Shown here: piece by piece, positions 27,940-57,165 of the stretch
Position numbering within the stretch: the first letter of the stretch is position 1
How the letters are laid out: each line of letters begins with the position of its first letter
Source of the DNA: Takakia lepidozioides
Taxonomy: Eukaryota > Plantae > Bryophyta
Length of the DNA stretch: 64,000 nt
Reading direction: 5' to 3'
Assembly: GCA_030704615.1 (NCBI GenBank)
Contig: CM060731.1
Coordinates: 6,262,001 to 6,326,000, forward strand
Made by a program: the position numbers and the translations under genes
Notes under the pieces: generated by a model
Told to the model about the DNA's origin: nothing
Databases searched by the model: none
Seen by the model: the letters and a program-made list of their open reading frames with translations, nothing else

Positions 27940-28440
27940 GTTTGGAGGAAAGCGCAATCGAGGTTTCTCTGGTATACCACTTGAATGATATAATATGTCT
28001 GGAGGAAAGATCCGTCGAGGTTTCCCTGGTGTTTAAGTGATGATATATTTAAAAGAAACCGTGGTCAAGGTTTCTCTGACATCATGGTATACCTTAATAT
28101 GTCTGGAGGAAAGTCCGGTCGAGGTTTCCCTATATCACTTGAATGATGTAGCTTATATGTTAGGAGAAAATATCGGTCGAGGTTTCCCTAGCATATCACA
28201 AGATATGTTTATAGGAAACTGCGGTCGAGGTTTCTGTGACATGTATACTGTCTGAAGGAAAGCCTGGTCGAGGTTTCTCTGGCATATCAGTTGAATGATA
28301 TAAGATATGTTTGGAGGAAATCTCGGTCGAGGTTTCCTTGACATAATGGCCTTAATAAGAAAACCCGATCGAGGTTCCCCTGGTGCATATCACTTGAATA
28401 AAGCTTAATATGTTTTGAGGAAATATCGGTTGAGTTTCCA
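27940..28440 (+). repeat. Array of about 10 copies of GGAAA-N4-5-GGTCGAGGTTTCY with variable spacers
   Basis: Counted by eye; period about 40-60 bp. Confidence 0.85.
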
Positions 28441-28477
28441 ACTTGTATACATTTGGTTGTTTGTGATAGGATTTTAC

Positions 28478-29629: not shown

Positions 29630-29829
29630 TGGAACAACTTGGTATCTATGTTTTGAATCAAGTTAGCAACAAAGTTCATGGACTTTGATTTACACTGCTA
29701 TACTTTTGAACATGTTTTGAATGTTCATACTCGGAAGATGCATAAATGTCTTGATATGATATGTCAATGTATATTGGGTGGTGTGTTGGTGAAATTGCGA
29801 CAACAACTTAAGATATTAAGCGATCTGTC

Positions 29830-30690
29830 AGCGAAACCTCGACCACGGATTCTTCCAAATATGTTAGTATATCACTTATGTCAGAGAAACCTCGACCGAT
29901 TTTTCCTCCAAACATACTAGTTCAATCTCGGTTCCCATTCATTATGAAATTGATGCATCTCAAGGAAACCTTGATCACAATTTCAAGGAAACGTCGACCG
30001 TGGTTTCCACTATATGAATGAACATCGATCACATTTCCAGTAACCCATTTAAAATGTGTTCATTCATGAGCATAAAATACACATGTTACTTAAGGAAAAC
30101 CTCGACCGTATTTTCCACCAACAACCTTGACCGCGGTTTCCACTACATGAATTAAGTGGTGCATCATATCATATATGCCATTTGCTTAAATCAATCCTTC
30201 ACCGCAATTTGCACTTAACACTTCCTAGCAGGGAAACCTCGACCGCGGTTTCTCTTAACAATTGGTAGAAGGGAAACCTCGACCACGGTTTCCTACCAAG
30301 ATATTGAAATATGGGATGTATGCTCAATGGAAACCTCGACCACAGTTCCCACCCACATGATATTTCAATATGAGAGACATATGCCTAAGGCAACCTCGAC
30401 CGCGATTTTCACTACGTGCAAAAAAGTAAGTAATGCACATTATCATATATGTCATTTGCATAAAGGAAACCTGCACCACGGTTTCCACTAGCAATTGATG
30501 CCAGGGAAACCTTCACCACGGTTTCCATGATACAAAATATACATGGGTATATGTTCATGCCCTAGAGAATTGATGCCACACCATATATTTATTTTACCAA
30601 GTATATTGTCAACCATTCAAGTATTAGATGCTTCCTGGAAACCTCGACTGTAATTTCCATCGGTCTAGGGAAACCTTCATCGCGGTTTCA
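29830..30690 (-). repeat. Array of about 15 inverted copies of the same motif (GGAAACCTCGACCRCGGTTTCC on +)
   Basis: Reverse-complement of the motif in the 27940-28440 array. Confidence 0.85.
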
Positions 30691-30836: not shown

Positions 30837-32773
30837 TTAGAGTTTCTGAATTTTCTTGCGTTTCGATTTTATGCTCCGCTCTAGAAAATCTTTCATACGA
30901 ACGATAGAATTACCGCACCCATCATCAACTATTTGAAATGTTTGGGCAGGATGCATCATGTCCTCCGTCACATTTGCTCGTAGTGATCTTAGCTTCCCAT
31001 GCACTGACTTCAGCAATGACAATGCATGCATACGAAGACTAAAATCACCTTCAGCAATATCATGCATAATAGCTGTCATTGTTTCTTGGACACATGCCAA
31101 CTCTCTCTTGGTGATGTCTTCATCACTTCTTGGTTTTTCTGATGAATGTAATGAGCTCACTTGCTCCTCATATTGTCTGCATAAAACTGACATTATAACA
31201 AATATGTCTCATTTGTAGGAAACCACAAGTCTCATTTCCCTATGATCTCATATTATGTAAACAAAGCATATATTGAACAAAACATTATATTGAATACAAA
31301 ACATGTATTGAAATAGACATTGTTGTATGTTTTGAATAAAAAAGGTAGAGAGTCATATAACATACATTCATCCTTGTCCGAATCTTCAGGTTGAGCCAGT
31401 ACATCATTTAAATCAATACCCGTTTAAAAAAAAGATTGAATGTCACCACGTGCACAGTCGTACTCTGTACCACAAGCTAGAACAATTCGAGGCTCGGATA
31501 TATTTTTCAGTAATTGGATGACTTTGATTTGATGTTTGCAGAGATTTCCTCGTTGTGCCCATTCGCAATGACTTTGTAGTGCACTCATCCATTGTTGCAA
31601 ATCACAAGCCCTTCCTCGGCTTGTAATAGCCCAAGCAACTGGAATACCATTGTAGTGCTTATCAAACACAACAAGTGTGAACAATTGGAATTTTTGATCA
31701 TTTGTTCCAAAAGTTGCATCACAAGCAACGGCACCTCCATGACCTCTGTCAAGCATTTTCATTATTTGATAAGGGGTTTGAATGCCCAGAGTGAAAGGAA
31801 TGGTGTCATCCACCAATTCATGTTGTTGGTAGAAGAAGACATATTCCGGATGTTCTCGTACCCACATCTTCACACTTTCCGCTAGATTAGGAGCACGTTT
31901 GAAAGACTCTTCCGCTAACCGAGCCGCAATGTTTCTAATATCTTGCATTTTTAAAAAATCATCCCTAGTGGCCAACTCCCCCATGTCACTTCTGGCCTGC
32001 CATATCCTCTTGTGTTCTTTAAAAACTTCCATTGGCGAGGATCCACAATCAAGACGTTTAAGTATCCAATCTCTCAAATCTTGGGATATCCAAGGAGCAA
32101 ATTGTGATTTCCGTAACAAAGATTGAGGATCTTGTGTACCATGACAAACCTCGCCATTGCGGTCAACATGAGATCTCTCATAATAAATCAATTCAGCCAC
32201 ATCTTGATACATGAACAGCCTCTTGATTGCGAATTTGCATAAACAACCTCTAAGTTTTGTTTTGGAGTGAGCCTTTCGATCACGTCTACTACATGGTCCT
32301 TTCTTTGGCTTTGGAGTTGTGGTGACATTTCTTTCTTCAATATTCCGTCGGTCATCTCGTGGACCCCAAACACAATGATACCTGCAAACATATCACAAGG
32401 AAACCAAAATATAGGTTTAATTTTATGTGGGCAGATAGCCATAATTTCCAGAATTATTCAAAACACCTATAGTTCTCACAATCCCAATACAAAAGTAGAG
32501 TGAAGCATACCACTTTTGACCAATGTGGCTGTCAAAACAAGTCTGATCCAACTTAGATGAACCTGGCACACTCTTGACAATCTTGAACTTGGTTGGTGCA
32601 GATTTATTGTTGTTTTCTCCTTCCAAAAAATCTGGAACTCTTGTCCAAGGAATCCATGCCACTTTACATATGCATTCTGATCCTCTTACTTTTATGATGT
32701 GTGGCAGCCATACCAGATCATTTGCATCAAATGGACTTTTGATAGGGCTTTGAATCTCCAGTTCCTTCATCAT
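30837..32773 (-). CDS. MULE transposase with SWIM zinc finger (spliced, internally deleted)
   Basis: ACDATFGTND.KFQLFTLVVFD..YNGIPVAWAIT (MULE DDE first Asp) is followed almost directly by CEWAQRGNLCKH (SWIM), which implies loss of part of the catalytic domain. N-terminal IQSP...DLVW...WIPWTRVPDFLEGE block is present. Confidence 0.8.
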
Positions 32774-34426
32774 TGATGTTCCTCACATTTTGCACATATC
32801 AGGCATCTCCACCTTTCTGTGTAATCAGAAAAAAATCAAATAACACAGTTGAAACTTGAGACTATTATCCTTATTCAAACCCTAATATGCATTCATGAAT
32901 TTGTAATTAGTTTGAACCTCTATTACATGGCCTACTATATAAACTATTTTTCTGAACTTCAACCAAAACAAAAGCATGTTCAAAAACCGCGATTTTAGTT
33001 TCCCCGTCTTAAGAAATTGTGTTTCAGAGCACATGATTGCTCTATCCATTTGGATACCCCATATATGAACGAAGAATCATGCAAACAACAGAAGAGCACA
33101 TGTAAAACACACATACCATTTACATAAACATAAGTCTTCCTTGCTGAGATATTTCCACTTAGTCCACATTGTCTTGTCCATCATCGTATCACACTATAAG
33201 CTTCTTTAACTGCTTCAGCTCCTTCATTGAATCTCTTAAGCGCCTTGCACCCAACAATTCACATCAAGTGTTTAGTGATCCACAAGCTCACTTCACTAAT
33301 CTAATCTACACATAATTGCATCCACTAATCCATAGAACCCGTTGCTTGCTTTGGGAGCCAAGACAAGCTTGAACAGCCGTCACCCTAACCTCATCCCTCA
33401 CACCTAACCTCATCCATTTTGACCACATTCATCCATGCATGCCAAACATGCCATGGAGCATGCACGATGGGGCCTCGCATGGGGGAGCTCATAGAGCATG
33501 GTAGGGTGCGCATGCATGGTGAGGAGTATGGCGAGCAAGGGGGATGGCGAGGGAAATGGTAGGGCCCGGGCATGGGGCTGGCTCTTGGCATTAATGGCAG
33601 AATCCAATTAATGACACATATTAATGTGCCCTGCCTGGTAGGGACAAGGGCTATCCAGAAGCTAATCCTAGATTATGAATAATGCGAGGCGTGCTTTAGG
33701 GAGAGAAGCTTACGAATTGGCCAGGGATCCCCTGGCCCCGCATATTTCATCTTCAAAACCGTACTTAGCTCCACATGACATGCTACATTAGTCCGCCTTC
33801 AGCAGCGGTGTATCACGCAGGACGTTATATGTACCCCTACGAGCTCTGCTCGCTGCCATCTGTCGGCGGTCTTTCCGTGCAGGGTGGGCAACCCATCCCT
33901 TGGCTCCATGGACCGCACAGTCAATGTCGCCACAACCGCGTCCATGCAACAGTCGTAAATGGGCATAATGGACACTCCAATACAATCAGTTTTTCTCACA
34001 ATCACATGAATGTTATTGTGTCGGTGCCAGTGTGGCAATTGGTCTATGAGCTATGATATTAAATATAACTCGTGCCAAGCACATATGCTCTACACGCCAG
34101 GAGTGTGTTGCACAATGGTGAATCAACGAAGTGCATACACAGAGGGCACCTGATATCAGGCTCGGACACAAATTCCACGGCGGCATGATGGGTGTCTAAA
34201 ATGCGCACCAACCGTGATTGCACCAAAATACGAAAATCGGGACGTTGTGGTGTGGTGTGAAGAAAGGGGCAAAACATTTCCCCACGACATTCACTTCAAG
34301 TCACCAGAGTACCATTCCGTCCCACCCATGCCGCAGCGGAAGAGAAGACATAGGTAGGACACACATCCTCATTTGATGGAGTTCATGGATTTGATGTACT
34401 TCAGCGTGATCTTATTGCTTCCATAC

Positions 34427-34856
34427 TGTCACGGACGAGATAGTACCAAGCAAGAGATCCGAGTAGAGAGGACTCAATAGAAACTCAATGGATAGAAGTG
34501 TAATCTTTATATATGGTAGAACAAGAACACAAGATGTTGGACTGGAACTAGAGAATACCTCAAGATTGTGTTGGCGAGACTGAGGGGTCATCTATCTCGC
34601 CTCCTACTTATACCCCATATTCTAGTTCTCTAAGGATCCTTCCGGAGAAGCTTCCTTGGTGCTAAGGAAGTTTCTCGGGAAGTTTCCTAACCGCTTATAG
34701 ACGAAGCTTCTTAAGAAGTTTCTTTATTTTGCATGAAGTTTTTTGGGGAGTTTCCTAGCTAGCTTAGGGATCTTCTAGAAAGGTCTAGAATGAAGTTTCT
34801 AGAAGTTTCTAAGAAGGTCGTAGATATATGGTGTAGTTTTATTTATGTCTGTGACA
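34427..34856 (-). repeat. 3' LTR of the chromovirus
   Basis: Direct repeat of 51932-52378, adjacent to the PPT. Confidence 0.95.
34792..34809. promoter_or_regulatory. Perfect 4-unit heat-shock element in the chromovirus LTR (also at 52314-52331)
   Basis: GAAgtTTCtaGAAgtTTC, and GAAgtTTCtaGAAgcTTC in the other LTR; further GAA/TTC half-arrays nearby. Confidence 0.65.
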
Positions 34857-35718
34857 TCATCCCCTCCTCAAGCACCGAGTTCCTCGAGAGGCGGTGGCGT
34901 TCAGACTCGCAAGAAATCGAAAATACGACGCATGGTATTCGACAAATATTCGGCTCTTCGATCGTAACTTAAATGGTTCATTGGTCCTTGTAGCCAACGA
35001 TAATGTCCCACGCCAGGGACCTGAGACCATGCAGTAATTGGTGCATTGTTGTTCTCGAACACGCCTTCGAAAAAAAATTCGTTTGGTCCCGCAAATGATG
35101 GTTCCGTCTCCAGTAAGATGTGTCAAGTTAAATAAGCACAGTGTGAAACTAACTAGAATAAAGCTAGTTATTTGTATTTAACACTTGGATTTAGGTCAAG
35201 TGTTAAATCTGGTGTCAAGTTTAGTTTGACACCTGAACTGTCTTATCTTCACGAGAGCGTCAGTCGCGCAGCTCATCTCTCTCAAGTTGAGCCTACGCGA
35301 TCGAGCTCCTTCATCGTTTAGAACTGAGTGTGCTTATGATGGGAGGATAGGTTGTTGTGGGGTGGAGTCCCCATAGCTTGGGGTGCCCCTAGCTCGACTT
35401 CTGTTTTAAAGAATGATGCTGTTGGATTCATGTTGTTTCTTATGTCAACACTATGTTTTAAGCTTTCTTATCACTCGAGAGAGATGAGCTGTATCTAGTT
35501 TTCTAGTGCTAAGCTAGATGTGACGTTTTTGTTTTTAAGCACTATTATAATATAGCTTGGTCACGAGAGCCGGTAGTTAGACTGGCTATGTGTGCCTAGT
35601 GGAGCATAACAGGAAGGCAGAAACCACTCGAAGTGTCGCTGCAGCAGTTCTAACCTCCTGGGAATGTAGCGGGTCCAAGCTTTTTACAACAAGTAGGTGG
35701 GCTGGACCTGCTATTTGG

Positions 35719-36462
35719 GTCTAAGAAGACTGGGTCGGCGGATAGGCCTCTGTGGTTCCCAGGTGCAAAGGCCCCGTCTTGGGCTGGATAGATCTGTGGT
35801 TGGTGACTACGGTTTCGATCCACTGTCCCTGGGAAAATCTCCAGAGTATCTGCAGTTCGAGCTGGATTCACTGAACCAGAACTTGGCTAAGAACCCTGCT
35901 GGAGTCGTGATCGGAACCCGTCTTGATAAGAAGAAGGATATCAACCCCACTCCCTTCCGACCGTACAGTGAGGTGTTCGGCCTCCAAAGGTTCAGGGAAT
36001 GCGAATTGATCCACGGTAAATGGGCAATGCTTGCCATTGTTGAGCGTTGTCTATCGAGACGTTCACTGGCGTGACATGGCAAGATGCTGTAAAGGTGGAA
36101 CTTGCTGATGGTCCCTCTTACTTCGGTCTCTCGTTGCTGTTCAGCATCTTTGCTCTTGTCTGGATTGAGACTCTTGTGGTAGTTCCAAAGGAATGCCGAG
36201 TTAGACCCAGAGAGGCGTCTGTATCCTGGTGGCAAGTACTTCAATCCCCTCGGACTGGCAGCTGACCCCGAGAAGAAAGAGGTTCTAAAACTCGCCGAAA
36301 TTAAGCATGCAAGGTTGGCCATGGTTGCTGCTTTGGGTTTTGCTGTGCAAGCTGCTGCTACAGGCAAGGGTCCCTTGGACAACTGGGCCACGCACCTGAG
36401 CGATCCACTCTCACTTGCCTGCTGAAAGCACCCAGCAGCTTTCTTGAAAAAAAAAAAAAAAA
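35719..36462 (+). pseudogene. LHCB4: Lhcb4/CP29 chlorophyll a/b-binding protein retrocopy fragment inside the retroelement
   Basis: [85 protein letters not shown] and [14 protein letters not shown]. Frameshifts, no intron, A16 tract at 36447-36462. Confidence 0.9.
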
Positions 36463-36526
36463 CTATTGGCCTTGTCAGTCTTGTTCACCAAAATCACTGG
36501 GACGTGTAGGCATTACCAAGGCACCA

Positions 36527-36820
36527 GTGAAGGTTGTTGACTTTACCAAGCGAAGTGTGGTAGAGGGCGAGAATGTTGTCATTTGCCACAACGTTATGTT
36601 TCCTTCGGCTCTCTACTACTGCCATCATGTCATAGGAACCAAGGTGGTGCAGGCGTCGTTGGCAGCTGTAGATGGATCAATCATTCACGCAGTCGCCATA
36701 TGTCATTTGGATACCAGTCTCTGGGCATCAGAGCATCCTGCCTTCACGGCTCTCAACATTATTTAGGGAGCCGAAGCATGCCATTGGTCAACTCAGAATG
36801 ATCTCATCTGGGTGCCCTCC
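36527..36820 (+). pseudogene. BURP-domain C-terminal fragment inside the retroelement
   Basis: Four CH dyads with BURP spacing: VICH..MFP.ALYYCH...AVAICHLDTSLW..EHPAF..L.I*GAEACHW...DLIWVP (in-frame TAG). Confidence 0.8.
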
Positions 36821-37664
36821 CACTGATGAGGTCCGACCTCTGCTCTCGTTGCTACCGTTTCCAAGTAGTTCTGGGGATCGTAAGGTCAGCTCAGTGGAAA
36901 GTACTCTTGCCTATTTCCCTGCCAATCGCCCTTTAACCTGCAACGGGCCTCTTGAATAGGCACATATATCAACCATCAGCAACAATTTTTGCATGTGTAC
37001 CTACATAGGCTTTCGGTGTTGATGCCCAGACACAAGGAATTTCAATTTGCTGTAAAGTGTTAGGCTGTAGCAGTCTGTCTGCATGACTTCTCAAAATCTG
37101 TCGCTGATGTAGAGCTGAAAAGCATGTGGAAATGCCTTGAGATTGTGTCGGAGATCATCAATCTCGGATGCGCTTAAGCCCAGGCGCTCGAGCTCTGCCA
37201 TTGTCCCCAATTCGGTGATGAAGGGCAATCCGTTATCGCACGCCTGCTGCTCCAGGGTGTGATACCCCATCCATAACTGAGGTCGAGTCTTGGAGTTGGA
37301 GAGTTCTTGGTGCCTGGAGAAGCCTGGAGGGGAACGGCCTCGGGAACCCATAGATAACCTGGGAACAGGTTGTAATGGCAAGAACGTTTTGGTGTTAAAA
37401 AAAAAAAAAAAAAACCTTTCGATCTAATTTAAATGATTTAGAGCCTAATTGGTCATAACTTTGTCAGATGGACTTCGTTTGACTCAGTTTTTGGGGGGAT
37501 AGCTGCAGAAAGGGGAAATCTACCTATCTGGGTTTAGTTTTTGGGACTCTGCTAAAAATCTATGGAATTTTTAGAGTGTGAGTGTGCCATGAAAGATCCA
37601 CAATTCTGTTTCTAGAACCTGTTCTGGTCTACATGAGAGATAAATCTGGGGATGTACTCCTTGT

Positions 37665-38408
37665 ATGGATGGGGGAAATGAGGACGTTATTGAAGGGCAG
37701 GTCTCTTCTCTTAGCCTGTGCACACAAGGGGACAGGATTTATGTTTCCCAAGGAACTCATACTGATTTGAGTGGAGAACAGTTGGACGAGTTGATTGCAT
37801 ACTGGGAATCAAGCATTAGCAGTAGACAACAAACTGCTGTAGTTGGCGTTGAGGGCCTCAATATTGCTTTGGACAGTCAGAACTCTGTTGGAGCTAGCAG
37901 TTCTGCAGCTGTAGGTGAAATACCAAAGTGGGTGAAAGCTAGGCTTGGAACACAGCCAAAGACAGCCCCGGGGACCAAGGTGTTCAGCCACAAGGCCGTG
38001 GTGTACTGGAGCAGAGGAGCAGGAGCTACACAAGTTTGTGCAATCAGACATGGTTGCCGCCGGAGACGTTCTGCACAAGGCAACCACGAGCGGGGGTTCA
38101 TTAGCAATGACAAGTTTGTTCTGCGTGAAGGAGATGCAGTCATTCGTAATGAGGACACCCGCAACCGTCTCAAAGCTTTCGAATTGAGAGACTATCAGAC
38201 CCTACCTTTGTTTTCTTTAGTGTTCAGTGAGCGAGAGATAGGGGAGTATTGCTTTGTCTCTACCTGGCAGAAAGAGGAGGAGGGTTGGTTAGAGCGAGCT
38301 ACTTGGGACAAGGTTAGTGGCAGGTTTCTGGACATAGATATACCTCCTACACCTTACCATCATGCAGAGCGAGGCACTTTGAGAGAAGTCTGGCAGTTGA
38401 TAGCATAG
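37665..38408 (+). CDS. Extra ORF upstream of gag, 247 aa, unknown function
   Basis: ATG-initiated uninterrupted ORF with protein-like composition; no recognised domain. Confidence 0.4.
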   Translation: MDGGNEDVIEGQVSSLSLCTQGDRIYVSQGTHTDLSGEQLDELIAYWESSISSRQQTAVVGVEGLNIALDSQNSVGASSSAAVGEIPKWVKARLGTQPKTAPGTKVFSHKAVVYWSRGAGATQVCAIRHGCRRRRSAQGNHERGFISNDKFVLREGDAVIRNEDTRNRLKAFELRDYQTLPLFSLVFSEREIGEYCFVSTWQKEEEGWLERATWDKVSGRFLDIDIPPTPYHHAERGTLREVWQLIA

Positions 38409-41400
38409 ATCAGGATTAGATCTTGCTTGGTCGAGCTTCTATTCTTCCCCTCCATCTCTGTACTATTCTCATTACCTTGTACTTGTAGTTGCCAAAGCCT
38501 CTCTTGGTGGAGGCCAGTCAGTCCGGGGTTGTGGGCTGGGATATTCTGTAGGATCAGCATTGCAGCTGGATTTTGGTGTGGGGGTGTTGATGTTTTGATT
38601 TCTTGTGTTTGGATCCCCCCCAACACCTGCATGCTTGACTGTGCACCATGTTGGTTTTGTGTGGGCGCTTGCTTTCATAGGGATTAGGTCGGATTTGATC
38701 ACCGGTCAATCCTAGAGTATGCTGTCGGTGGTGAGGCTGGAGTGATGACCAGCAAGACCACCAGTGTTTCTTCTATGGTGAGACTGGGTTGATGACCAGC
38801 CAACCATAGGAGTTCTTGCGGTGGATGCAGGTGCAGGTGCCCTGAGCCACTGGGATATGACCCTTAAACTGCAACAGGTGCCCACCCGTGTCACTATTAG
38901 AATTAGTACTAGAGCCTTATAGTGTCACGTGGGGGAGGTGCACATTGTGAGTGTCATCACGGAGTTACCCAAGGGTTCTGAGGGGAGTACGGCTACAGGC
39001 AGTAGCACTGAGAGTGGGTTCACCAGACAAGGTATTCGTTTCAGACCACCTCCACCTCCACCCTCAACTAGTGCAGAGTCAGACACAGACTCGGAGGCTT
39101 CATCAACAGGTGTGCAGTTTCATTCGCCATTGTTGTGGGACGACATGGAGGAGATGTATGGAGCTACCAAGGGGCCTCGTAGGTACTCTGGAGCTGTGGG
39201 CACAATCGAGTTGGATGACTTTATCCAGGAGTTTGACAGCTGGTGTGATTTGCAGCAGATGCGCAATCCACAGCTATTCATTCCATTCATTGCGTGGAAG
39301 GGACTGTTCCAGCATTTGGAAGGCCCGCCTATGGACGATTACCACGAGTTCAGGCGAGGACATGAAGCAGAGATTGAGGAGTGAAGGATGTATTGGTCAC
39401 CTGACTACGTCTCCATTACTCGAGGCACGACGCGATCAGTAGCTGCATCAGTACCAATATCTCCCACTGCCAGCACTAGTAGTGGAACAAGTAGTGCCGG
39501 TACTTCTGCAGGTGGTACCAGTTCAAAAGGTGCTACTACTCCTTCTGCCACGGCTACAACACATGTGCCTAGATTCAACCCGGTGGTGGAGTTCTTCCAG
39601 GAGTTGCGGATGAACTACTAAGGTGTACGGACAGAGAAGCTGCGAAGTTTGCAAGACTTCTAGCGCAAACCCATTGAGAGCATGCGAGAGGCGTACACTC
39701 GTATAAGGCGCTTGATAAGTGTGACCCAAGGGGTTACTGAAGCTCAGGCAATCCAGTTTTGGTATGGAATTCTGGACAAGGAGCTCAAGAGAAGGGTGCG
39801 AGATGCAACCCTGTTACAAGCAGCCCAACCCACATTAGCATATGTGTTTCTGCTGGCTGAGCGGATTGAGCTCAACATGGTGGAGGAGCGAGTTGTTACC
39901 ATTGGATTTGGCAAGGTCATGCCTGCACGGGGCACAACTGCCAGCCCACAGGCACAAGGGACTGCCCAACAGCGTGGTCAGGGGGGCAAGGTTTCCCAAC
40001 CCAAGTTCCATGGAGCTTACAGGGGACCTCAGGTGCAAAGGCCCATGGTATCTTTTGCAGGCCACCAGCAACCAGGGGTGATATGTTGGACATGTGGAGG
40101 ACCCCATGTCAAGAGAGATTGCCCAGAGAGTGGCAAAAGGCCGGCACAAGCACAGCCTGCACAGTTGCAGTGTGGGCATTGTGGCAAGTATGGGCATGGA
40201 GATGCCCAGTGTTATGACTTGCATCCTGAGTTGCACCCAGGCCAGTTCCAAGGGAACAATGGTGGCCGGGGGCGAGGTGGACCAGCCCAGAGAGGACGAG
40301 GTGGTTGGGCACGAGGTGCAGGCCAAGGGCAAGCTCAACATGGACAAGGACGCGGAGGTCAGGGTGTTGACCAAGGCATGGCCAACCGGCTTCAGCAGCT
40401 AGAGCAGAGGCTCGCTGCCATGGCCACAGCTCAGGCGGTACCGGCTCCCAGGCGGGATGGTCCACCTCCTGCGCCTGAGGGAGGAGATATGGGAGGCATG
40501 GTATTCATGTGCGGAGCAGCGCTACCACTAGAGTAGGTGGAGTCTGCTGCAGCCGTGACTCGAGGAGCATCACGAGTTCCTGAGCCACGAGGTGCAGAGG
40601 TGGAATTGGATCCACAGCGTGGGGAGGCAAGCCGTCAGGCGAGGCTTCCTCAGTCATTCACATTGGTGGAGACAGTGTCGACGTCATCCATGGCACCTAG
40701 TTCTTGCCCGACTGTTACCGAGGCGGAGGTTACTATGCCATTGGGGAGAGCTACACGTGCAGCACTGACACCTGCTACCAAGGCTAGTGCAGCCGGTGTG
40801 TTGTTGGGGGCAGCCACCTCTGTGTGTCAAGCCCCACTGTTCTCGGCAACCATGATTGCGACGCCGGGGGTAAGACCAGCTGTAGTGTTCAGACTAGTAG
40901 CAACACTCTGTGAGAGTGGGGAGGTCACTTCATCTTTTGCGGAGTTAGTGGAAGGTGTAGTGGCAGAGGGATCCTCGGATTTGAGGGTCAAGACTGCCAC
41001 GGCTGCGCCATGGCAAGCTGCAGCTGTCAGGTTGACGGAGCTGCCAGCTAGGCCAGCCTTTGAGCGCGCCATGGTGACACCTGGAGTTGTCTTGTTAGAC
41101 AACCAGGATGGCATTTTCACTTTGAGTGGACCGACAGGCAAGAAGTACCGGCCACTACGGGTCTTGTTGGAGTCGGGAGTTCAGCCACTGATGTTAGGCA
41201 GAGCTGCTATTGCAGGTTTGGGCCTCATGGAGGCGGATATGGAGCCTTGTCTTTTCTAGATACATACATCTCTGGGAGGATCAGAGCAGGCTCGGGGCAT
41301 GACACGGCGTGAGTTGGCTATTGGACTACAGCCGGATCATCCTGTAGATAGCTCAATGATGCGAGCCAAGGCCATTGTGACAGACGCGGTCTCTTACGAT

Positions 41401-41880
41401 GTCCTCGTTGGTGGGGCAGTGTTATATCCCATGGGCTTCACCCTGGACTTTTGGGAGGAGTCAGCATCCTACAGGCCTGGATGGCAGTCAGGGGATGGTC
41501 GTCGTGCACAGCTCCTTGTGACATTCATTGGGGGTATTGCGGCTGCCCAACGGGGCAAGACGCCAACACTAGCCGCCTTTACAGCTACAGTTAGTTGGCC
41601 TAGAGAGTTGCTGGAAGGCAATGCCCATGCAGAGGATGTGCCACCTCCAGCAGAGCAGGATGACATGCATGGTATGGCGGAGTTGCCTGCCATGGTTGCT
41701 CACACTCCATTGTGGGGTACGAGCAAGGATTTGCAGCAGGTTGCTGATCGACGGGTGCAACAAGCCTGGGTAGAGGCTTTTGTACCGTCAGGAGAGGAGG
41801 AGAGTGCAGGTATTGTACCAGGACCACCTCAGTTGTCACCATTGGATACCACACCTATTGTGTGGCAGTATCCGGATGAA

Positions 41881-42830
41881 GCCATTTGCCTTCTGGACTT
41901 GTTTGGCGGGATCAACACCGGATTGGCTGCTGTGCTACAGGCAGGTGTGCGGGTAAGGCGTTACTTGTATGTGGAGAGGGATGAGACTGCACGACGCGTC
42001 TCACTGCGCCATGTTGCTCAGTTGGTACAACAGTACCCTGCTTTGTTGCCAGTGTCTGCAGTTCGTGGATACCAACAAGCCTTGCCAGCAGACATTTCGT
42101 TGCTGGGGGCGCCGGATTTGGAGCAGGTTGGCTCCATTGATCTGGTAGTGGCAGGTTGGCCCTGCCAAGGGCATTCATCAGCTGGGCATGGCAATGGATT
42201 GCGAGACTCGAGGACGGGTCTGTTTTGGGAGATGGTGCGGATTTTGCGCCACTTGCAGCTTCATCAAGCTGTATCGCCAGCATACATCTTGGAGAATGTG
42301 CCACTGATGGACGATTCTCGGGCCAGGGTGATGGCCAGTGTGCATCAAGTCCGGTCGCGGCTTGGGTCAGCAGTGCTGCTGGATGCAGCTGCAGTGGGAT
42401 CACGGGCTCATCGTCCACGGCTATGGTGGACTAACTTGATGTCACCCGCACTGCTCAAGCGTGCATTTGATGGGGTGCAGCGGCCAACACACCTCACAGT
42501 GGACAGCATTTTGGACACAGGGAGGCAGTCTCAATGTGTGAGACACGATGACCGTTCGCCTTTGGCAGTGGTCAACAGGGTGGGTCAACCACGAGCAACA
42601 TTACCTACACTGCTCAGCTTCCCAGGATCCCATGCTTTTTGGGATGGTGGACCTGGCCTCATGTGGGATGCTCAGTTGCAGCAGTTAGTGGAGCCTAATG
42701 CTGACGAGCGAGAGCGGGCTATGGGGTTTTCCACTGGGACCACAACGGTGCCTTCTCTTTCTGAGGCATCACGTCGTCAGGTGTTGGGGCAAGCAATGGA
42801 TCTCAATTGCTTGACCTGGATTATCAGCTT
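41881..42830 (+). CDS. C5-cytosine DNA methyltransferase domain of the polyprotein
   Basis: Ordered motifs I LDLFGGI, II YVERD, III ADI, IV GWPCQGHS (Cys codon 42163), V GLRDSRTGLF, VI YILENV (ENV at 42292), VII DAAAV, VIII HRPRLWW, IX ERERAMGF, X RRQVLGQAM. No stop inside the domain. Confidence 0.92.
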
Positions 42831-45800
42831 GGCTATGGCTGAGCAATGTAGAGTGCGGAGTGCACTTCCCTTGATGGTCTCTCTGCCTACCGAGACGGTA
42901 CAGGCAGCGAGTGGGGGCGAGCCGGTGAGGACCACGGGGTGTAGACATCCATGGCTAACGTAGGAGGTGCTTGAGGTTCAGAGGAAGTTGGCAGCCAAGG
43001 CAGCTGTGATGGATGAGGTTGGGGATTCTTCTCGGGTTGATGAGGTCCTCAAGGATGAGATGATGGGGCAGGATGAGGCCTTGTCATTGACTGAGCAGGT
43101 AGGGAGTACTGCTCAAGAGGTTGCGGCATAGCAACCACGGGACGCGTCCTCTACCTCTAAGCCCATTGGACTTAAGGTTGCAGTTACGGAGGACAATTGG
43201 GAGCCTGACATTGGACCCATTGTCACCGAAGGAGAGAGACGACGTATACGGTGGTTCCTAAGGGCTTACAGGAATTGCTTTGCCTTCAGTTTGAAGGACT
43301 TAGGAGCACTGAAGGGTCAAGAGATTCGCATTGAATTGGCTACTGACACGCCAATCTTTCGGAGACCCTATAGATACAGTGACATGGAGAGGTCCTTGAT
43401 TCAGATGAGAACTCAGGACCTTTGGGAGGCTGGTTTGGTGGAGCTATCTGGGGGAGAGTATGCTTCAGCCACAGTGATGCCAGCCAAGAAGGATGTCTAT
43501 GGCAATTGGACGGAGAGACGTATGTGCGGTGATTACCGGCCTGTAAATCGTCAGACCAAGTCCGATAGGTATGCCATGCCGACACCAAAGGAGATCTTTG
43601 ATGCCATTGGGCATGCCAAGGTCTTTAGCACGTTGGATTTACGATCCAGATATCACCAGTTGCCGCTCAAGGAGGCGGATAAGCAAAAGACGGCATTCTG
43701 GGGGATCAATGAGCACGGGAAGGATTGCCTATACCAGTGGCGGTTCTTACCATTTGGGCTTAAGAACGCTCCGGCAGAATTTCAGAGAGTCATGGATAGG
43801 ATTCTAGCTGGGGTGGAGTTTGCTCGGTGCTACATAGATGACATCATCATTTTTAGTGTTATGGTGGAAGAGCATGAGAGACACCTTCAGGGGGTATTTG
43901 AGCGCTTGAGGGCGTACGGATTGAAGTTACATCCGGGAAAGTGCAAGTTTTTCCACAACCAGATTGAGTATCTGGGTCACATGATATATCCTGGAGGATT
44001 GGGGGTACAACAGACTAAGGTAGAGTCCATTGCACAGGTTCCACGCCCCACGGATGTGAGCCGAGTTCGAGCTTTCATGGGGTTAGCAAACTATTATAGA
44101 CGGTATGTTAAGGGATTTAGTGCCATTGCAAAGGCTCTAACCAAGCTGACCAAGGTGGACCAGGAGTGGCAGTGGGAAGATGAGCAAGAACAAGCTTTTC
44201 AAGAGCTCAAGGCGAGGTTGACCTCGGCGCCCATCTTGAGACGACCTATCAGGGGGCGTCATTTTCAGCTGCATACAGATTGGAGCATGCTGGGGCTTGG
44301 AGCGGTGCTCACACAGGTGGATGATGAGGGAAGAGAGTTCATAGTGGCTTATGCTAGCTGCTCGAACAACGTTGTAGAGTCTAAGTATAGCTCATATAAG
44401 GGAGAATGCTTAGCTGCAGTGTGGGCCATGGCACACTTCAGGTACTATCTATACGGCAATCTCTTTACCCTTGTCACAGATCACCAACCACTCAAGTGGT
44501 TGATGGAGTCAGACAAGCTTACGGGGAAGCTTGCACGGTGGGCACTCATCCTTCAAGAGTATGACTTTCAGGTGGTGCATTGACCGGGTTTGGTCAATCG
44601 CAATGCAGATGGGTTGAGTCGCAATCCATGCACGAGCCAGCAAGATGACACTGGAGCTCGGTGGCATGGTGAGACGGACGAGGAGATGGTGCCCGGATGG
44701 CATGCATCTGCATTTCTGTGTATCTTGGCAGCGGAAGGCCAGGTTGGACCTGCAAGAGGGATGACTGTAGATCAAGTGTCTGAGGACCCTGAGGCCAGCA
44801 ATGAGCAGGGTGGCACCAAAGATATACATGAGGATTCAGTTGTGTTGGACTACCTCCGCACTGGAGACACTGCAGCCACTGTGACTGCCAAGGAGAGGGA
44901 TCGGATCCTACAACGAGCCAAGAGGTTCAAGTGGGAGGGGACACACCTGCTCCGAGTGTGGGAGGATGGTCGAGTGAGGATTGTGCCTCACCCAACACAG
45001 CGGGCACGGTTAGTGCGGCATGCCCATGAGGAGTTGGGGCATTTTGGGGTGCGACGCACTCATAGTCTACTGCAGGGGCAGTATTGGTGGCGTGGTATGC
45101 ACACAGAGGTGCAACAATTTGTGGCTAGGTGCATGGTGTGTGACAGGGTGTGTGCTTCATTCAACGCCCCTACTCCACAATTGCACCCTCTTCCGATCAT
45201 GGGATTGGGCTACAGGTGGAGTCTTGACTTCGCAGGGCCGTTGCCACTGACCATGCACCATAACAAGTACGTGTTGGTGATGGTGGAACACTTCTCCAAG
45301 TGGATTGAATTGGTTCCATTGCCTGATAAGGCTAGTGAGGGAGCTGCGTATGCATTCTTGGATTGTGTGCTTAGCCGATTCGGTGCTCCTGCTGAGGTAC
45401 TCACGGACCAAGGGAGAGAGTTCTTGGGGGAGTTTCAGGCTTTGTGTGACAAGGCCTTGATAGACCACCGCACCACTTCTCGGGATCATCCTGAGGCCGA
45501 TGGCTTGGCAGAGAGAGTTGTTCAGACAGTAAAGAGGGGTTTGCACAAGTATGGCTTGCAGAAGGGACACCTAGGAGATTGGGACCTTCAGTTACCCTGG
45601 TTAGCCATGGGCTACAGGTTCAGCAAGCAAGCATCACTTGCCTCATTCTCGCCATACTTTCTTCTCTTTGGCCGAGAGCCGGATTTGCCTACATCCATTC
45701 GCAGAGAAGCTGCTACAGTTCTTAACCTTGACGATCCGGACGTGTGGGCACGTGCATGTGAGCAACGTGCAGAGTTATTCAAGAAAGTCATGCCCATGGC

Positions 45801-46122
45801 TTTCGAGAACCTTGCCATTGCACAACATCGTGATACGTTGAGGTATGCTACCATACGTGGTGGGGGCTATCGTCCTGGGGTTCGGAGATTCAACCCTGGT
45901 GACTATGTTTATCTGTAGCAGACTGCTCCTATGACCTTGGATGTGACTGCAGGACGTGTTATTTTGAGGGTTCGAGAGGTCTTGCCCTTAGGCGTCTTGG
46001 TCTTGGAGGGTCGGGATGGCATAACTTGGAAGGACCATGTGCGTAATTGTGCGCCATGTCACCTTCCGAATGTCGATGGCGGGATTGACCCAAACCTGGC
46101 AGTGGTATCTGCAAGTTTGAGG

Positions 46123-46262
46123 TGCATGTTGTGTGGGCTAAAGGGGCAGCCACCATGCTGGTGTGTGATCGATGCTCTAGAGGTTGGCATATGGGATGCT
46201 TGACTCCACCTCTTGAGATGGTTCCGGATGGGGATTGGTTATGTCCGCATTGCATTGGATAG
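46123..46262 (+). other. PHD finger (C4HC3) at the integrase C-terminus
   Basis: CMLCG /frameshift/ MLVCDRCSRGWHMGCLTPPLEMVPDGDWLCPHC*. Confidence 0.88.
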
Positions 46263-46518
46263 TGGGAGTGGATACAACCATGGGAGGCTAACAAAAAAAG
46301 CAAAGCCAAGCTACTAGGAGACCTTGAACACACGAGATCCTGGCTCAAGTACATTGCAAGACGGCGACTAACGATGGGGCTACTCTTGTACCCGGCCTCT
46401 TGGTCTACAGAGTTTGAGTACAACAAGGCCAGTGATAGAGGACTTAGTACGGCTGTGGCTATTACATCTTGTAGCTATCTGGAGTTAGAGGGACCTATCC
46501 ACCAGCTAGGGGGGCGAT

Positions 46519-46957
46519 TGTGGCAGACTACTTTATTGTGCATATATGTGTGGTGTGGTTTGGACAGCGATGTAGTTGTGTAGCGATACGTATGCGCACG
46601 ACAGCTGTCAAGTTAAATAAGCACAGTGTGAAACTAACTAGAATAAAGCTAGTTTTTGTATTTAACACTTGGATTTAGGTCAAGTGTTAAATCAGGTGTC
46701 AAGTTTAGTTTGACACCTGAACCGTCTTATCTTCACGAGAGCGTCAGTCGCGCAGCTCATCTCTCTCGAGTTGAGCCTGCGCGACCGAGCTCCTTCATCG
46801 TTTAGAACTGAGTGTGCTTATGATGGGATGATAGGTTGTTGTGGGGTGGAGTCCCCATAGCTTGGGGTGCCCCTGGCTCGACTTCTGTTTTAAAGAGTGA
46901 TGCTGTTGGATTCATGTTGTTTCTTATGTCAACACTATGTTTTTAGCTTTCTTATCA
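46519..46957 (+). repeat. Complete LTR (A + GC + B) of the DNMT element, followed by a second copy of A (46959-47043)
   Basis: Starts TG just after the PPT and ends TATCA; the B part matches 35121-35473 with few differences and a 1-nt indel. Confidence 0.85.
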
Positions 46958-47392
46958 TTGTGGCAGACTACTTTATTGTGCATATATGTGTGGTGTGGTT
47001 TGGACAGCGATGTAGTTGTGTAGCGATACGTATGCGCACGACAGATGATTAAGCATCGCACAGGTTTGACACGTCCTCGAATGGGGATCAGAATTTGTGA
47101 GAATACTTCTCACTCTGGTGGTTCCCCCTCTTGCGATCGTCTTCGTCGTCGTGAAGTCAAAGGCTGTGACAACTGGGCTGGTTTGTCCGGCAGTTGAGCA
47201 AATGAAAGTTCTTATGGTTCTTGTGACGAAAAGGTAATGTCTGTTAGTGACAACTCCACCACCTCAAGATATCTATTTGCTTGGTGCTCTCTCTTTCTTA
47301 TTGTGCGCCAAAGGCGGTGGCTTCATCTTCAAGTTTTGACGGCTATTAATGTTGGACGGTCTAATAATTCATCGACGCGTGGCTCGAGGTTT

Positions 47393-50300
47393 TTAGGGGT
47401 GTTGGTGATGGAATTCTTGAAATTTCTGGGATGCATGAGTGATATTGGATGATGGTTCCCACGTTCGTTCATTGACATCATATCCACGCCAATGGACCAA
47501 ATATTCCAAACATCCACAACATAGTCGAGAGTCTAGGATTGCTTCGACCTCAAATTCTTCTTCGCCATCAATTTCTATTGGTGGAGGTGGTTGAACTTGT
47601 CTTCCAGGAATGATAGATTCACAAAATGGTTCAAGAATCAATACATGAAATACTGGATGGATTTTCATAGAGCTTGGGAGTTGTAGCCGAAAAGCAACTA
47701 GATTACCTGGCCAATGATGGTGAATGGCCCGAGTCGTCGATAATCCAGTTTCTTTGAAGGCCTTCTTGATTGTAAATCTCGACGAAGTAATTACCAAACG
47801 CGATCTCCAATTTTATAGGTTGGGTGTGGTGCGAGGTGACGGTCAGCTAGATCTTTATAACGGTCTTGGGCCTCTTTCAATTGTTTTTTGAGGTCATTCT
47901 GAATGTTGATCAATCGTTCTGCAAGACTTATAGCAGCAGGGTTGTTTGTTTTTCCGAACGCGATAGTATCGAACCTCGGGTGTCGCCCATAATTTGCAAA
48001 GAAAGGCGTGTGTCCAAGGCTCAAGCAATGCATGATATGTGTTGTTATACGCAAACTCGGCTAGAGACAAGAGGTCTACCCAATCATCCTGATGATAGTT
48101 AATTATACAACGAAGATATTGTTCCAATACTTGATTTACTCTCTCGGTTTGTCCATCTGTTTGAGGATGATTGGCCGAAGAGATGTTGATTTGTACTCAT
48201 AGAAGTTTAAATAGTCCCTTCCAGAAACTTGACATGAATTGAGGTCCCCGATCAGACACAATATTTGATGGCAAGCCATATTCTGTAGACATGCTTGAAG
48301 AAAAGCTTTGACGTTCCTTCGCTTGTGACAGACTTGAGGGTTGGGATAAAATGCGTAATTTTTGTTAGGCGGTCGACCACGACAAGAATAGCGTCGAAAG
48401 ATTCAGAACAGGGGAGATCTGTGATGAAGTCCATAGATAATGATGACCACGGGCCCTCGGGAATAGGCAATGGCTGCAGCACACCATACGGATGGTGATG
48501 TGGTGTTTTTGCTCGGGTACATGTATCACAAGTGCGGATGAATTCTTTTACCAACTTCCACATTCGTGGCCACCAAAAATCCCTTGAGATAAGCTCGATG
48601 GTTTTAGTTACACCAAAATGACCAGTTGATGGAAGGTTGTGTCGTGCTTGAAAAACATGTAAGCGAAGTGGTCCTGGTGGTACATAAATGAGTCCCATAT
48701 AGTGGATAAGGCCTTCTGACTCCTGAAATTCGCAATCTTCGTTCGATCTTTGACATAGACGTCGTCTTATATCCTTCGCAAAATGATCCATTTTCAGACT
48801 TCCACGAATCTTTGCAAGAAACTCGTATCAATAGGAATTTTACTTTCTATTGACATGAGATGCAATTGTTCTGGTTTCAGAAGGATGGACTTCTGTTGAT
48901 CGAATGCAACATCTCCTTGTTTAGAGGCCAGATATGATCGGCGTGACAGTGCATCTGGCTTCCCCTGTTGGCTTCCTGGACGATAAGCAATGATAAATTC
49001 AAAGTGAGATAGAAACATACACCATCTGGCTTGTCGACGATTAAGTACTCGAGCATTCATAAAATATTCGAGATTCTTATGGTCGGTGTAAACTATGACC
49101 GTATGCCGAGCTCCTTCCAAAAAATGTCGTCATTCTTCGAAAACTTCGATGATTGCTAAAAGCTCTTTATCTTGGATTTCATAGTTGATTTCTGCCGCCG
49201 AAAACTTCCTCGAATGGAATCCCACAGGATGTAGTCGTCTGTCGTCTCCATATTGTGACAATATAGCACCAAGTGCAAAGTCGGAAACGTCTGCCTCAAG
49301 AAAAAATGGTTTGGTCGGATCTGCATGGATTAAAATGGGAGCTGTAGTAAAAGCGTTCTTCAATCTTTGGAAGGCTTTTGAAGCATTGTCGTCCCACTTG
49401 AATTTATCCTTTCCTGTAAGTCGTGTTAGGGGTGCGGCAACCTTTGAATAGTCCTTGATGAAGATCCGATAAAAGTTTGCAAACCCCAAGAAACATTGCA
49501 CGTCCCAAACCGAAGAAGGTGTCTGTCAATCGACAATGGTTTGGACTTTCTTAGGGTCCATTGAGATTCCATTATCGGAGATGATGTAGCCCAAGAATTC
49601 AACCTTCGACTGGTGGAAAAGACATTTTTCTAGCTTTGCATATAGTCATTTCTCTCGTAATTTGTCGAGGACGAAATAGATGTGTTTTTCATGGTCTTCG
49701 AAATTTTTGGAGAATATCAAGATGTCATCTAAATATATGACTACAAAGTCGTCAAGAAATTCTCTAAATATGTCGTTCATCATATGCTGAAAATTTGTCG
49801 GAGCATTTGTAAGACCAAATGGCATGACGTTGTATTCAAATGACCATACCTTGTATGGAACGTTGTTTTCCATTCGTCGCTTTCTTTAATTCGTACAAGG
49901 TTGTAGGCGTCCCGCAAATCGATCTTTGTGAAGATTGTGGATTGACCAAGTTGTTCTAGAAGCCCTGAAATCAGCGGTAACGGATAGTGATTTTTTATCG
50001 TGATTTTGTTGAGACCACGATAATCCACGCACATTCGTAGAGTTCCATCTTTCTTTTTTACAAAGAGTATTCCCGTGATTTAGAATGTCGTAAGAAGTTT
50101 TTCGAAATATTTTCATCGATGTAGCTTCGTAGCTCCGTCAATTCATTTTGGGAAAGGTTGTAGATGGATCCAAATGGTGGTTGAGCTCCTTCTTATAGTT
50201 CGATTGCACAGTCATAGGGTCGATGCTGTGGCAGCATGTCAATGTTCTTCTTTTCGAACACGTCCTTAAAATCATGATACTGTGGCGGTAGTGTTTCTGT

Positions 50301-51878
50301 GATTTTGTCTTCCATATTTTTTGCAGGCGCCGCATAGATCATGAAAGATGTACCTGTCTTCGTAGCTTGTAGAAATGTTCTTGCCCCAATGAGTTTTGGT
50401 CGAATGAATCTCCGTCCTTGGCGTTGTTTAGTCCTTGCGAATATTTTTCTTGTAGACCAGTCGATATCTGGATTGTGTAAGTTAAGTCAAGACCGCCCCA
50501 AGATTATTGGGTTCGAAGATGATTTGATGATGTTGAACACAATATTTGACACAAATTCTTCGTGGTGTACTTTGAGAGGTTGAGTCTCCTGAGTCACGTC
50601 TCCTGGAGCGAGGATACGTCCGTCGATAACTTCACAAGTTGCAGGGTTTTCTTTCTTCATCAGCTCCAGATATTCTTGTGAGCAAATTCTTTGTCGATGA
50701 AACATGTTGTAGTACCACTGTCTACTAAAGCTTCTATATGTATTATGCGTCATGTGATATGTATATCTATAGGGATCGTGAAACTTGATACAGGGTCTGG
50801 GGGTAGGAATAGACCCTTTGTCTTCCTTTGATTCGTATTGGATAGCCGCAATGCCCCTATTGGGGCTGGACAACCTCGTTTTCCGCCTGGTCTGCTCCGT
50901 TGGTAGTAGCTATGCTTCGAACCTTGTACCGTTCTTTTGTTGTGACAATTGGATGTAAGATGTCCAGGTTCTCCGCAATATAAACAAAGTCCTAGCAGTC
51001 GGCAACGTTATTTTTCTTCTGGCGTGAGGGGTTTGAATCGCACAACATCAATCTGCATAGGTTCGTAATCTCTCGTTGAACTGCTGGGTGTCGTTTGTGG
51101 AGTGGGAGGTAGGGCCATTGTTGGGCGTCCAAAGGATCTGAGTCTTTTTTCTTGTCGTCTTTCATATAGTCGATTGTCGCAGGCGATGGCTTGGCTAGTG
51201 AACTCGCTCAAAGTAGCCACCTTTGGCATGGTAAGCATGAGATCTTTTACATCATTTCGAAGTCCTCAACGAAATTGGCTATTGTAGTTGTTTTCATTCC
51301 AATTTACATCGGATGCTAACTGTCAAAATTCTGCAGCATAGGTTGATGCAGGGCGAGCTCTTTGTCGTAGAATTCGAATTTTTGTATCGGCAACTCTTTC
51401 ACGATCAGCTTCATCAAACGTTGCACTAAACTCCGCAAGAAAACTTTCAAAGTCGTAGAGCAATGGTGAGTTTTTTTCGAGCAATGGTGCAAACCATGAC
51501 AAGGCGGTTCCTGAAAGTAAGGTCCCTATCAATCCAACCTGGGAGGCACTGTCAGGGTACCGGTCATGCTGCATGAGGAGCCGTACTTGTTGAACAAACC
51601 CTCGAAACTTTGACCTCGTTCCATCAAACTTTTCAGGCATGCTGACCTTTGGTTCTTTTGTTTGTAGTTGTATTGACGTCGCGGCAGTACTAGAAGTCCC
51701 CGGGCGGTCTGTACCGGTTTCACGTAGCTCTTGAATTTGTCATTGGAGATCTTGGACAGCCGGAGCTAAAACTTGAGGTCGATCGGCTTGGAATTGGAAG
51801 TTTGTCTCTTGAAGTTCTTGAAGTTGTCGTTGAAGATCATGCATCATTGCAACGATCGCGGCAAGAGATTCTTCCATA
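47393..51878 (-). pseudogene. Degenerate gag-pol of the chromovirus including the chromodomain
   Basis: EEFEVEAILDSR...YLVHWRGYD..E.TWEP (47393 ORF); integrase, RNase H, RT, protease and Gag fragments broken by stops and frameshifts. Confidence 0.92.
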
Positions 51879-51931
51879 ACAAATTATGAGACACACGACA
51901 AAAATGAAAAAAAAAAACAGTCTCGTCAAAC

Positions 51932-52378
51932 TGTCACGGACGAGATAGTGCTAAACTACAAGCAAGAGATCCGAGTAGAGAGGACTCAATAGAAACTCAA
52001 TGGATAGAAGTGCAATCTCTATATATGGTAGAATAAGAACACAAAATGCTGAACTGGAACTAGAGAATACCTCAAAATTGTGTTGGCGAGATTAAGGGGT
52101 CCTTTGTCTCGCCTCCTACTTATACTCCATATTCTAGTTCTCTAAGGATCCTTCCGGAGAAGCTTCTTTGGTGCTAAGGAAGTTTCTCGGGAAGTTTTCT
52201 AACCGCTTATAGACGAAGCTTCTTAAGAAGTTTCTTTATTTTGCAGGAAGTTTCTTGGGGAGTTTCCTAGCTAGCTTAGGGATCTTCTAGAAAGGTCTAG
52301 AAAGTTATAGAATGAAGTTTCTAGAAGCTTCTAAGAAGGTCGTAGATATATGGTGTAGTTTTATTTATGTCTGTAACA
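51932..52378 (-). repeat. 5' LTR of the chromovirus
   Basis: Direct repeat of 34427-34856 with small indels. Confidence 0.95.
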
Positions 52379-56665: not shown

Positions 56666-56829
56666 GTCGGGGTCGCCCGTCTTTTCATCCAGGGAATATC
56701 TCCCAGGGATGAAGTCGGATGAAAGAAGTTGCTAAACGAAAAAGGTCGCTGCCAGCGAGCTCTACACGCTGGACTTTACGGCGGCCGAAAACGAGATCTA
56801 CAGCGACGTCGGGGATTTTTGCAAGTGAC

Positions 56830-57165
56830 AGTTAGAAAGTATGCAGGGTGCTGCATGGAGGTGGACAACCAGGGGCGTACGTTGATTGTAAGTGACGAGT
56901 GCATCCACAAAATGAGGAATCAATGCTGAGTTGAAGAGATTGTTTGGGCAGATAAAGGACGCATGATACGTCCCTAACTTGTGTTGTATTGCATGATCCA
57001 GAGGAGATCAAGGATTTTCTCTTTGCGACCGTGAGAAGCTGGCCTTTGGGCTGTCTGCATCACCAACAGTTTTGGGCTCTGACTCCACCTGCGCGGACAG
57101 CACCGACCTCTCGCGGGAGAGCCAGTTAAGGACAAACTGTGTAATGTGTTTGGTTTGGGGATCAG
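56830..57165 (+). pseudogene. Decayed PPR E+/DYW fragment, paralog of 63605-63990
   Basis: Shared text gctgcatggaggtggacaaccaggg.cgtac.ttgattgtaagtgac...gaggagatcaaggattttctctttgcgac.gtgagaagctggc. Confidence 0.8.

Follow-up and report, generated by a model that had tools for sequence, protein, structure and literature searches.

The 64,000-nucleotide window of Takakia lepidozioides (Bryophyta) analysed here (GenBank assembly GCA_030704615.1, contig CM060731.1, positions 6,262,001 to 6,326,000) contains a dead, decayed copy of a Ty3/gypsy retrotransposon with its own DNMT3-type C5 cytosine methyltransferase (DNMT) domain, which is an integral, long-retained module of an abundant land-plant Gypsy family. 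An initial annotation of this DNA placed the element at 38929..46262 and left its C-terminal PHD finger unnamed; the element in fact occupies 35121-47043 (11.9 kb) in the order A1, coding region, B1, GC, A2, B2, with GATG on either side, and has split direct repeats (A-coding-B-A-B) in place of ordinary long terminal repeats (LTRs). Taken as a whole, we consider it fairly probable that this is a decayed copy of an abundant family in which the DNMT sits at the end of a Gag-protease open reading frame (ORF), with likely stop codon readthrough, likely methylation of the element's complementary DNA (cDNA) and likely integration by cutting of a palindrome.

The motifs of the domain are LFGGI (41899-41913), GWPCQG (42154-42171), ILENV (42286-42300), RAHRPR (42403-42420), ERERAMGF (42706-42729) and LGQAMD (42784-42801), and the interval 41260-42960 is free of stops, which bears out the ordered, uninterrupted C5 methyltransferase motifs first annotated. 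The match to PF00145 scores 50-52 bits (cut-off 22), and the domain is intronless, unpermuted and Dnmt3-related, with the key residues present. Searched as a single sequence against solved structures, it matched DNMT3A (E 6e-10) and DRM (1e-4), while a 21-sequence profile against PDB scored DNMT3A at 87 bits, DRM at 37–42 and M.HhaI at 37. The predicted structure (pLDDT 85) had DNMT3A/B as top Foldseek matches (E 2e-18), with a VIA-align Z of 26.1 (root-mean-square deviation 2.5, 261 aligned) compared to 21 for M.HhaI. As modelled, the domain is a C5 methyltransferase of DNMT3 fold; enzymatic activity of this dead copy is not supported. With DNMT3A/B and plant DRM2 it has in common the fold and the motif order of DNMT3, but it has no PWWP, ADD or UBA domain, is unpermuted unlike DRM, and is 22–25% identical to DNMT3A in structural alignments; domains of algal elements are closer (30–50% identical), which argues against recent capture of a host DNMT3. 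A Pfam scan of the element proteins gave no match to UBA, chromo or BAH domains, and this, together with the unpermuted motifs, sets the domain apart from a captured DRM, CMT or MET1, as first proposed.

The frame from 38923 encodes Gag, two zinc knuckles, protease, C5 methyltransferase, reverse transcriptase (RT), RNase H (RH) and integrase (IN), that is, the Gypsy domain order with a DDE integrase; tyrosine recombinase, the trait of DIRS, PAT and Ngaro elements, had no match in any ORF scanned, rve and H2C2 matches being found instead. The single frame of about 7.2 kb first described holds as a frame, unshifted to about 46136, but it is interrupted by nine in-frame stops (39382, 39619, 39661, 40534, 41257, 42961, 43129, 44581 and 45916) and ends in a frameshift near 46136-46139, where other copies have extra letters, that breaks the PHD finger. 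The protease active-site motif is degenerate in this copy, and the homologous stretch of the intact locus L021 matches PF13650/PF13975 below cut-off. The Gag-like region has no Pfam match and is called from its position, its motifs and 50–70% identity to relatives.

That other copies carry the domain had been set beforehand as a test of the annotation, and they do. Searches gave 64 longer homologues and 217 of similar length. Those with a named source come from Calypogeia fissa, Marchantia polymorpha, M. paleacea, Riccia sorocarpa and three Sphagnum species, the top ones in Calypogeia (74% identity), Marchantia (72%) and Sphagnum (65–67%), and also from the algae Closterium, Chromochloris and Monoraphidium. 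Among 80 loci kept from 311 relatives in 600 scanned metagenome stretches (L numbers below), RT lies at most 700 bp downstream of the domain in 59, most others being truncated at contig ends or by deletions. A profile search returned 598 clusters at E<=1e-30; among the best 150 50%-clusters, 105 have a retroelement domain (RT, RH, IN or protease) in the same protein, the commonest architecture being RT-RH-DNMT-IN (41 clusters), and nearly all relatives have a PHD finger on the integrase. Of four runs, the three that cover the element broadly have about the same read depth over the methyltransferase as over RT, and much more than on unique flanks; in run X1 depth reached about 1e6 over gag-pol compared to 100–600 on unique stretches, a ratio that is not a copy number. 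Two runs that we guess to be RNA have contigs matching parts of the element, and a viral collection gave only partial, weak matches at 30 loci (best E 2e-15).

The DNMT of the window groups with those of Calypogeia, Marchantia and Sphagnum (13 rows; SH-aLRT 100 in a quick tree, FastTree 1.0); likewise, its RT joins those of Marchantia and of Sphagnum type. Two named Klebsormidium nitens RTs, which may or may not belong to KnitGypsy-Dnmt3 and are only 45–50% identical, fall among the DNMT-bearing relatives but outside the window clade. DNMT and RT distances are correlated across 85 elements (r 0.81, 0/999 permutations); since kinship alone yields such a correlation, this shows long co-inheritance, not co-adaptation. 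The domain evolves under purifying selection and not neutrally: pN is 0.20 and pS 0.75 between the window and 11 close loci, and omega between lineages is about 0.07 (saturated) to 0.10, the latter among the intact-looking L019, L021 and L028, for which RT gives 0.04 and IN 0.02. L021, L028 and the clusters of P0017 and P0280 include many stop-free copies; some are listed as cyanobacterial in public bins that probably contain eukaryotic DNA. In chlorophyte-type sequences (P0040, P0043, P0058 and others) the same DNMT lies between RNase H and integrase, and in Tetraselmis P0344/P0352 a more divergent DNMT lies ahead of RT; the position of the domain has changed within one lineage.

The in-frame TAG at 43129 is conserved in relatives and is thus not decay, and the methyltransferase does not share an open ORF with RT. 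The module is integral and retained, as first proposed, but one continuous polyprotein is not supported: in this sub-lineage a stop splits Gag-protease-DNMT from RT-RH-IN-PHD, and the enzyme belongs to the Gag-protease ORF. At the homologous codon, 27 of 30 close loci have TAG or TAA followed by CAR-YY, a count in which apparent repeats of the same copies (L003/L004, L011/L015, L029/L032 and L034/L035) are unmerged; the remaining three have a deletion or a shift at this point. Of the 326 stops that these loci owe to decay, 4 are followed by CAR-YY and none by CAR-YYA. L021 retains a 1369-codon ORF, one stop and a 1047-codon ORF in the same frame, and most database Gag-protease-DNMT proteins end 74–168 residues past the domain. 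CAR-YYA is the readthrough signal of plant viruses such as tobacco mosaic virus (TMV) (PMC2194720), and murine leukaemia virus (MuLV), SIRE1 and TMV likewise have an in-frame stop of this context between two ORFs, although in the window element it follows protease and methyltransferase and precedes RT. It is quite likely that ribosomes would mostly halt at TAG-CAA-CCA, giving methyltransferase at the level of Gag and RT-IN at a few percent. Conserved RNA structure 3' of the stop was sought in 6 sequences with inconsistent results (z -0.35 in the window to -3.2).

The balance tips slightly towards a role in which the protease frees the methyltransferase and the enzyme acts on the double-stranded cDNA just made, whose methylation would give a pre-marked insert. 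Methylation of cDNA is inferred from the fold, the intact catalytic motifs, the selection, the Gag-side position and the CG methylation by SymbioDIRS-Dnmt3 in yeast (PMC5890265). Alternatively, in the same element, the methyltransferase may act on host chromatin with the PHD-bearing integrase and mark the insertion site or neighbouring copies instead of free cDNA. This would fit the near-universal PHD finger and the largest group of relatives, in which the domain follows RNase H and precedes integrase. We consider it unlikely: in this sub-lineage the stop comes after the domain, which lies on the Gag side and would be fused to the integrase by readthrough only.

The stop could also be the true end of translation, with RT-RH-IN-PHD translated from an RNA of its own, from a spliced RNA or after reinitiation. 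There is a precedent in Tca2, whose similar in-frame stop showed no measurable readthrough in reporter tests and which has a weak junction promoter (PMC2194720), and most Sphagnum-type copies have an in-frame ATG after the stop. No such ATG occurs in the window, L019, L021, L028 or L064, however, and the frame is kept across the stop, with CAR-YY at the homologous site over about 50% protein divergence; one contig of a run guessed to be RNA also crosses the stop without a gap, a weak observation. We rate a true end as distinctly unlikely and retain readthrough as the likely explanation.

The full A-B-A-B layout recurs in L032, L044, L046, L049 and L055, which represent two subfamilies (about 63% and 41% DNMT identity), and 5 of the 6 complete elements, the window copy included, have a 4-bp target duplication. 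The stretch after A1 complements the element's own A, some 150–165 nt in, in all 6 (12–19 nt, with a distinct sequence in each of three subfamilies; 0/300 shuffles in the best repeat copy of each); in the window the complement is exact over 15 nt in A1 and 19 nt in A2 (0/300 shuffles) and folds as a terminal stem. Two Sphagnum-type subfamilies have a TATA-like box shortly upstream of this site. Self-priming instead of a tRNA primer is known for Tf1/Sushi and plant Tcn1 chromoviruses (PMC6317226), which differ in having ordinary LTRs and a chromodomain where the window element has split repeats, PHD and DNMT. Very probably, transcription would start about 150 nt into A and the RNA 5' end pair with the post-A1 stretch and prime as in Tf1. 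A polypurine tract (PPT) precedes B1, which makes B+A the unit that reverse transcription would duplicate, and with equal confidence we predict that the plus strand starts at this tract and that B+A is the working LTR.

The element begins with TGTC and ends with GACA, the two halves of a junction GACA-NN-TGTC that is found also in L021 and L028, and foamy virus integrase is known to cleave a palindromic junction (PMC1180852). A staggered integrase cut in GACA-NN-TGTC would probably give two CA ends with 2-nt overhangs mimicking processed LTR ends, in an over-length linear or end-joined cDNA; the A/B joint would be copied from RNA running into B2 and the over-length cDNA cut at its outer palindromes. 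Another possibility, to which we give little credence, is that a symmetric two-LTR circle is cut at either palindrome, or that recombination between tandem copies left the split repeats behind. The A2/B2 joint does run exactly from the end of A to the start of B, like a two-LTR junction, and 7 of 19 3' ends stop after B1 (A-coding-B forms). One such form, L016:5991-14630, has its own 4-bp duplication and may derive from B-by-B deletion or from integration via an internal-palindrome cut. A circle predicts the mirror form A-B-A-coding-B equally often, but B precedes A1 in none of 24 distinct 5' ends, and this asymmetry favours over-length cDNA, although the missing form could be hidden by short-read assembly or later A-by-A deletion; two full identical terminal LTRs, as in canonical LTR Gypsy elements, were not found in these loci either. 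In these counts cross-assembly duplicates were merged (L029/L032, L034/L035, L043/L046, L050/L051), L077 (B interrupted) was taken out of the B-only count, and L025 and L027 (B not after a PPT) were dropped. Chance recombination is ruled out, since in three subfamilies the duplications enclose the entire A..B unit. We also rejected hemimethylation as an explanation of the polarity, as the palindrome site is symmetric.

A one-off capture of a host methyltransferase, a neutral passenger or algal contamination is scarcely conceivable, for although this copy is broken and omega is 0.35–0.51 within sets of decayed copies, RT is alike there (0.29–0.49), as expected from decay after insertion, the 598 clusters and low identity to DNMT3A point elsewhere, and the element is nested in another element in DNA that is that of a land plant, flanked by PLS-type pentatricopeptide repeat (PPR) genes with E, E+ and DYW domains.

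Several observations, besides the behaviour of Tca2, weigh against the reading we prefer. The last position of the readthrough context is C or T in 23 of the 27 conserved stops, only 4 having the full CAR-YYA, and in a distant subfamily the stop is found in 0 of 29 copies, 13 having an open linker and none a conserved upstream stop, so that Gag-level dosage is not needed for retention of the domain. The trees contain neither host DNMT3 nor KnitGypsy-Dnmt3 DNMT sequences, the A repeat of the window has no clear TATA box, and the model gives no reason why the inner B1/A2 palindrome would be spared when its copies are cut. No activity was seen in yeast for the Klebsormidium domain, a result its authors called inconclusive (PMC5890265). 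CpG depletion was rejected as a sign of self-methylation, because the CpG ratio of the element (0.47–0.52; surrounding element 0.95) is equalled by three other repeats in related loci (0.30–0.54).

The kind of element is known from K. nitens, in which KnitGypsy-Dnmt3 has an A-coding-B-A-B, DIRS-like layout (de Mendoza et al. 2018, PMC5890265), and the kinship in kind named in the initial annotation stands, the shared features being a Gypsy domain set, an intronless unpermuted Dnmt3-like domain, DIRS-like repeats and purifying selection. In KnitGypsy-Dnmt3 the DNMT shares an ORF with RT, whereas the window element has the conserved stop between them and a land-plant host. One open ORF with DNMT and RT does occur in the distant subfamily and in relatives such as P0295 and P0320, but not in the window sub-lineage, which is therefore a variant and not the published family itself. 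SymbioDIRS-Dnmt3 has the same repeat layout and a Dnmt3 domain but uses a tyrosine recombinase, in contrast to the DDE integrase, PPT and 4-bp duplications seen here (PMC5890265). The text searched of that paper, figures excluded, does not mention self-primer, PPT, internal palindrome, 4-bp duplication or PHD for KnitGypsy-Dnmt3. Later papers say 'streptophytes', citing de Mendoza et al. (PMC12344493; bioRxiv 2026.05.21.726589). No land-plant report of the family and no Marchantia gene identifiers were found in a literature search that covered few subscription papers and no figures or bioRxiv supplements, whose trees might include bryophytes. Our analysis extends the kind to land plants with testable signals for translation, priming and integration; new are the conserved leaky-type stop, the Tf1-like self-primer, and the PPT before B together with a palindrome matching both element ends. 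Split repeats of the same layout are found in PAT/Ngaro-type elements, which use a tyrosine recombinase, and the internal palindrome is a defined site on which to test how a DDE integrase can serve such a layout.

De Mendoza et al. (2018) left open how a retrotransposon benefits from encoding a cytosine methyltransferase. Whole Gag-protease-DNMT ORFs are present in Marchantia polymorpha as the unannotated genes Mp4g09160 and Mp8g17980, so that this can be tested in a land plant for which genome editing is established and methylation mutants exist, among them Mpmet mutants with derepressed repeats (10.1101/363937); such gene models can also be misread as those of host methyltransferases. The conserved stop also predicts enzyme dosage. 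More speculatively, and short of what we would call probable, there may be a Gypsy clade spanning the green lineage from chlorophytes to liverworts and mosses that combines self-priming, a split LTR, integration through an internal palindrome and a capsid-level DNMT3-type methylase, set by a leaky stop, that methylates cDNA, a route undescribed for DDE-integrase retrotransposons. If so, high-copy families could add de novo methylation independent of RNA-directed DNA methylation in bryophytes.

Table 1. Features of the methyltransferase-bearing element and its host element (window positions)
Feature	Position	Strand	Remarks
Older chromodomain-bearing Gypsy element, host of the nested insertion	34422..52378	-	LTRs 34422-34856, 51927-52378
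Left target-site duplication GATG (4 bp)	35117..35120	+	same 4 letters at 47044-47047
Repeat A1, starts TGTC, element 5' end	35121..35473	+	343/352 aligned letters shared with A2
Site in A complementary to primer-binding position; predicted transcript 5' end (self-primer)	35269..35287	+	
Primer-binding position directly 3' of A1; complementary to A, not tRNA-type	35473..35491	+	
Broken intronless fragment in leader, taken to be Lhcb4/CP29-like	35721..36410	+	no Pfam match
Additional open frame of 254 codons ahead of gag, in high-depth part of family	37644..38408	+	
Gag-like region, two CCHC zinc knuckles (40081-40236), three decay stops	39145..40236	+	
Aspartic protease region, broken in this copy	41149..41460	+	
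DNMT3-type C5 cytosine methyltransferase domain, unpermuted motifs, catalytic PCQ and ENV present	41878..42840	+	
Conserved in-frame TAG then CAA-CCA (CAR-YYA readthrough-type context), end of Gag-protease-DNMT ORF	43129..43137	+	
Reverse transcriptase and RNase H	43354..44580	+	PF00078, PF17917, PF17919
Integrase zinc-binding and DDE core domains	44992..45492	+	PF17921, PF00665
C-terminal PHD finger, frameshift-split	46089..46262	+	PF00628, 41 bits
Polypurine tract directly 5' of B1	46508..46516	+	position same in related loci
Repeat B1, GACA at end	46517..46603	+	87/87 identical to B2
Internal palindrome GACA-GC-TGTC, B1/A2 junction; predicted integrase attachment site	46600..46609	+	
Repeat A2	46606..46957	+	
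Repeat B2, GACA at end, element 3' end	46957..47043	+	
Right target-site duplication GATG	47044..47047	+	

The LTRs of the older chromodomain element are identical at 414 of 435 letters, and the repeats of the inner DNMT element are less diverged, as nesting predicts. In the leader of the window copy, 35554-37261 has low read depth, by which the fragment that we take from its translation to be Lhcb4/CP29-like is not family-wide; a piece at 36516-37119 matches a contig of a possible RNA run, and A-runs lie near 36447 and 37398. These leader pieces are host transcript fragments captured by this copy. The open frame at 37644-38408 has about 40% of the gag-pol depth, with no Pfam family, no match in the 80 related loci and Atlas scores below 0.9.

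The window also contains an Hsp70 and an F-box-Kelch gene. The PPR genes lie at 10313-12658 and 61798-63540 (one with a full DYW), with a further DYW-like fragment at about 56800-57050. Degenerate repeats of 40–60 bp with a common GGTCGAGGTTTC occur at 27928-28442 and 29809-30521, in opposite orientation between the blocks, and surround a MULE/SWIM-like frame at 31424-32392.

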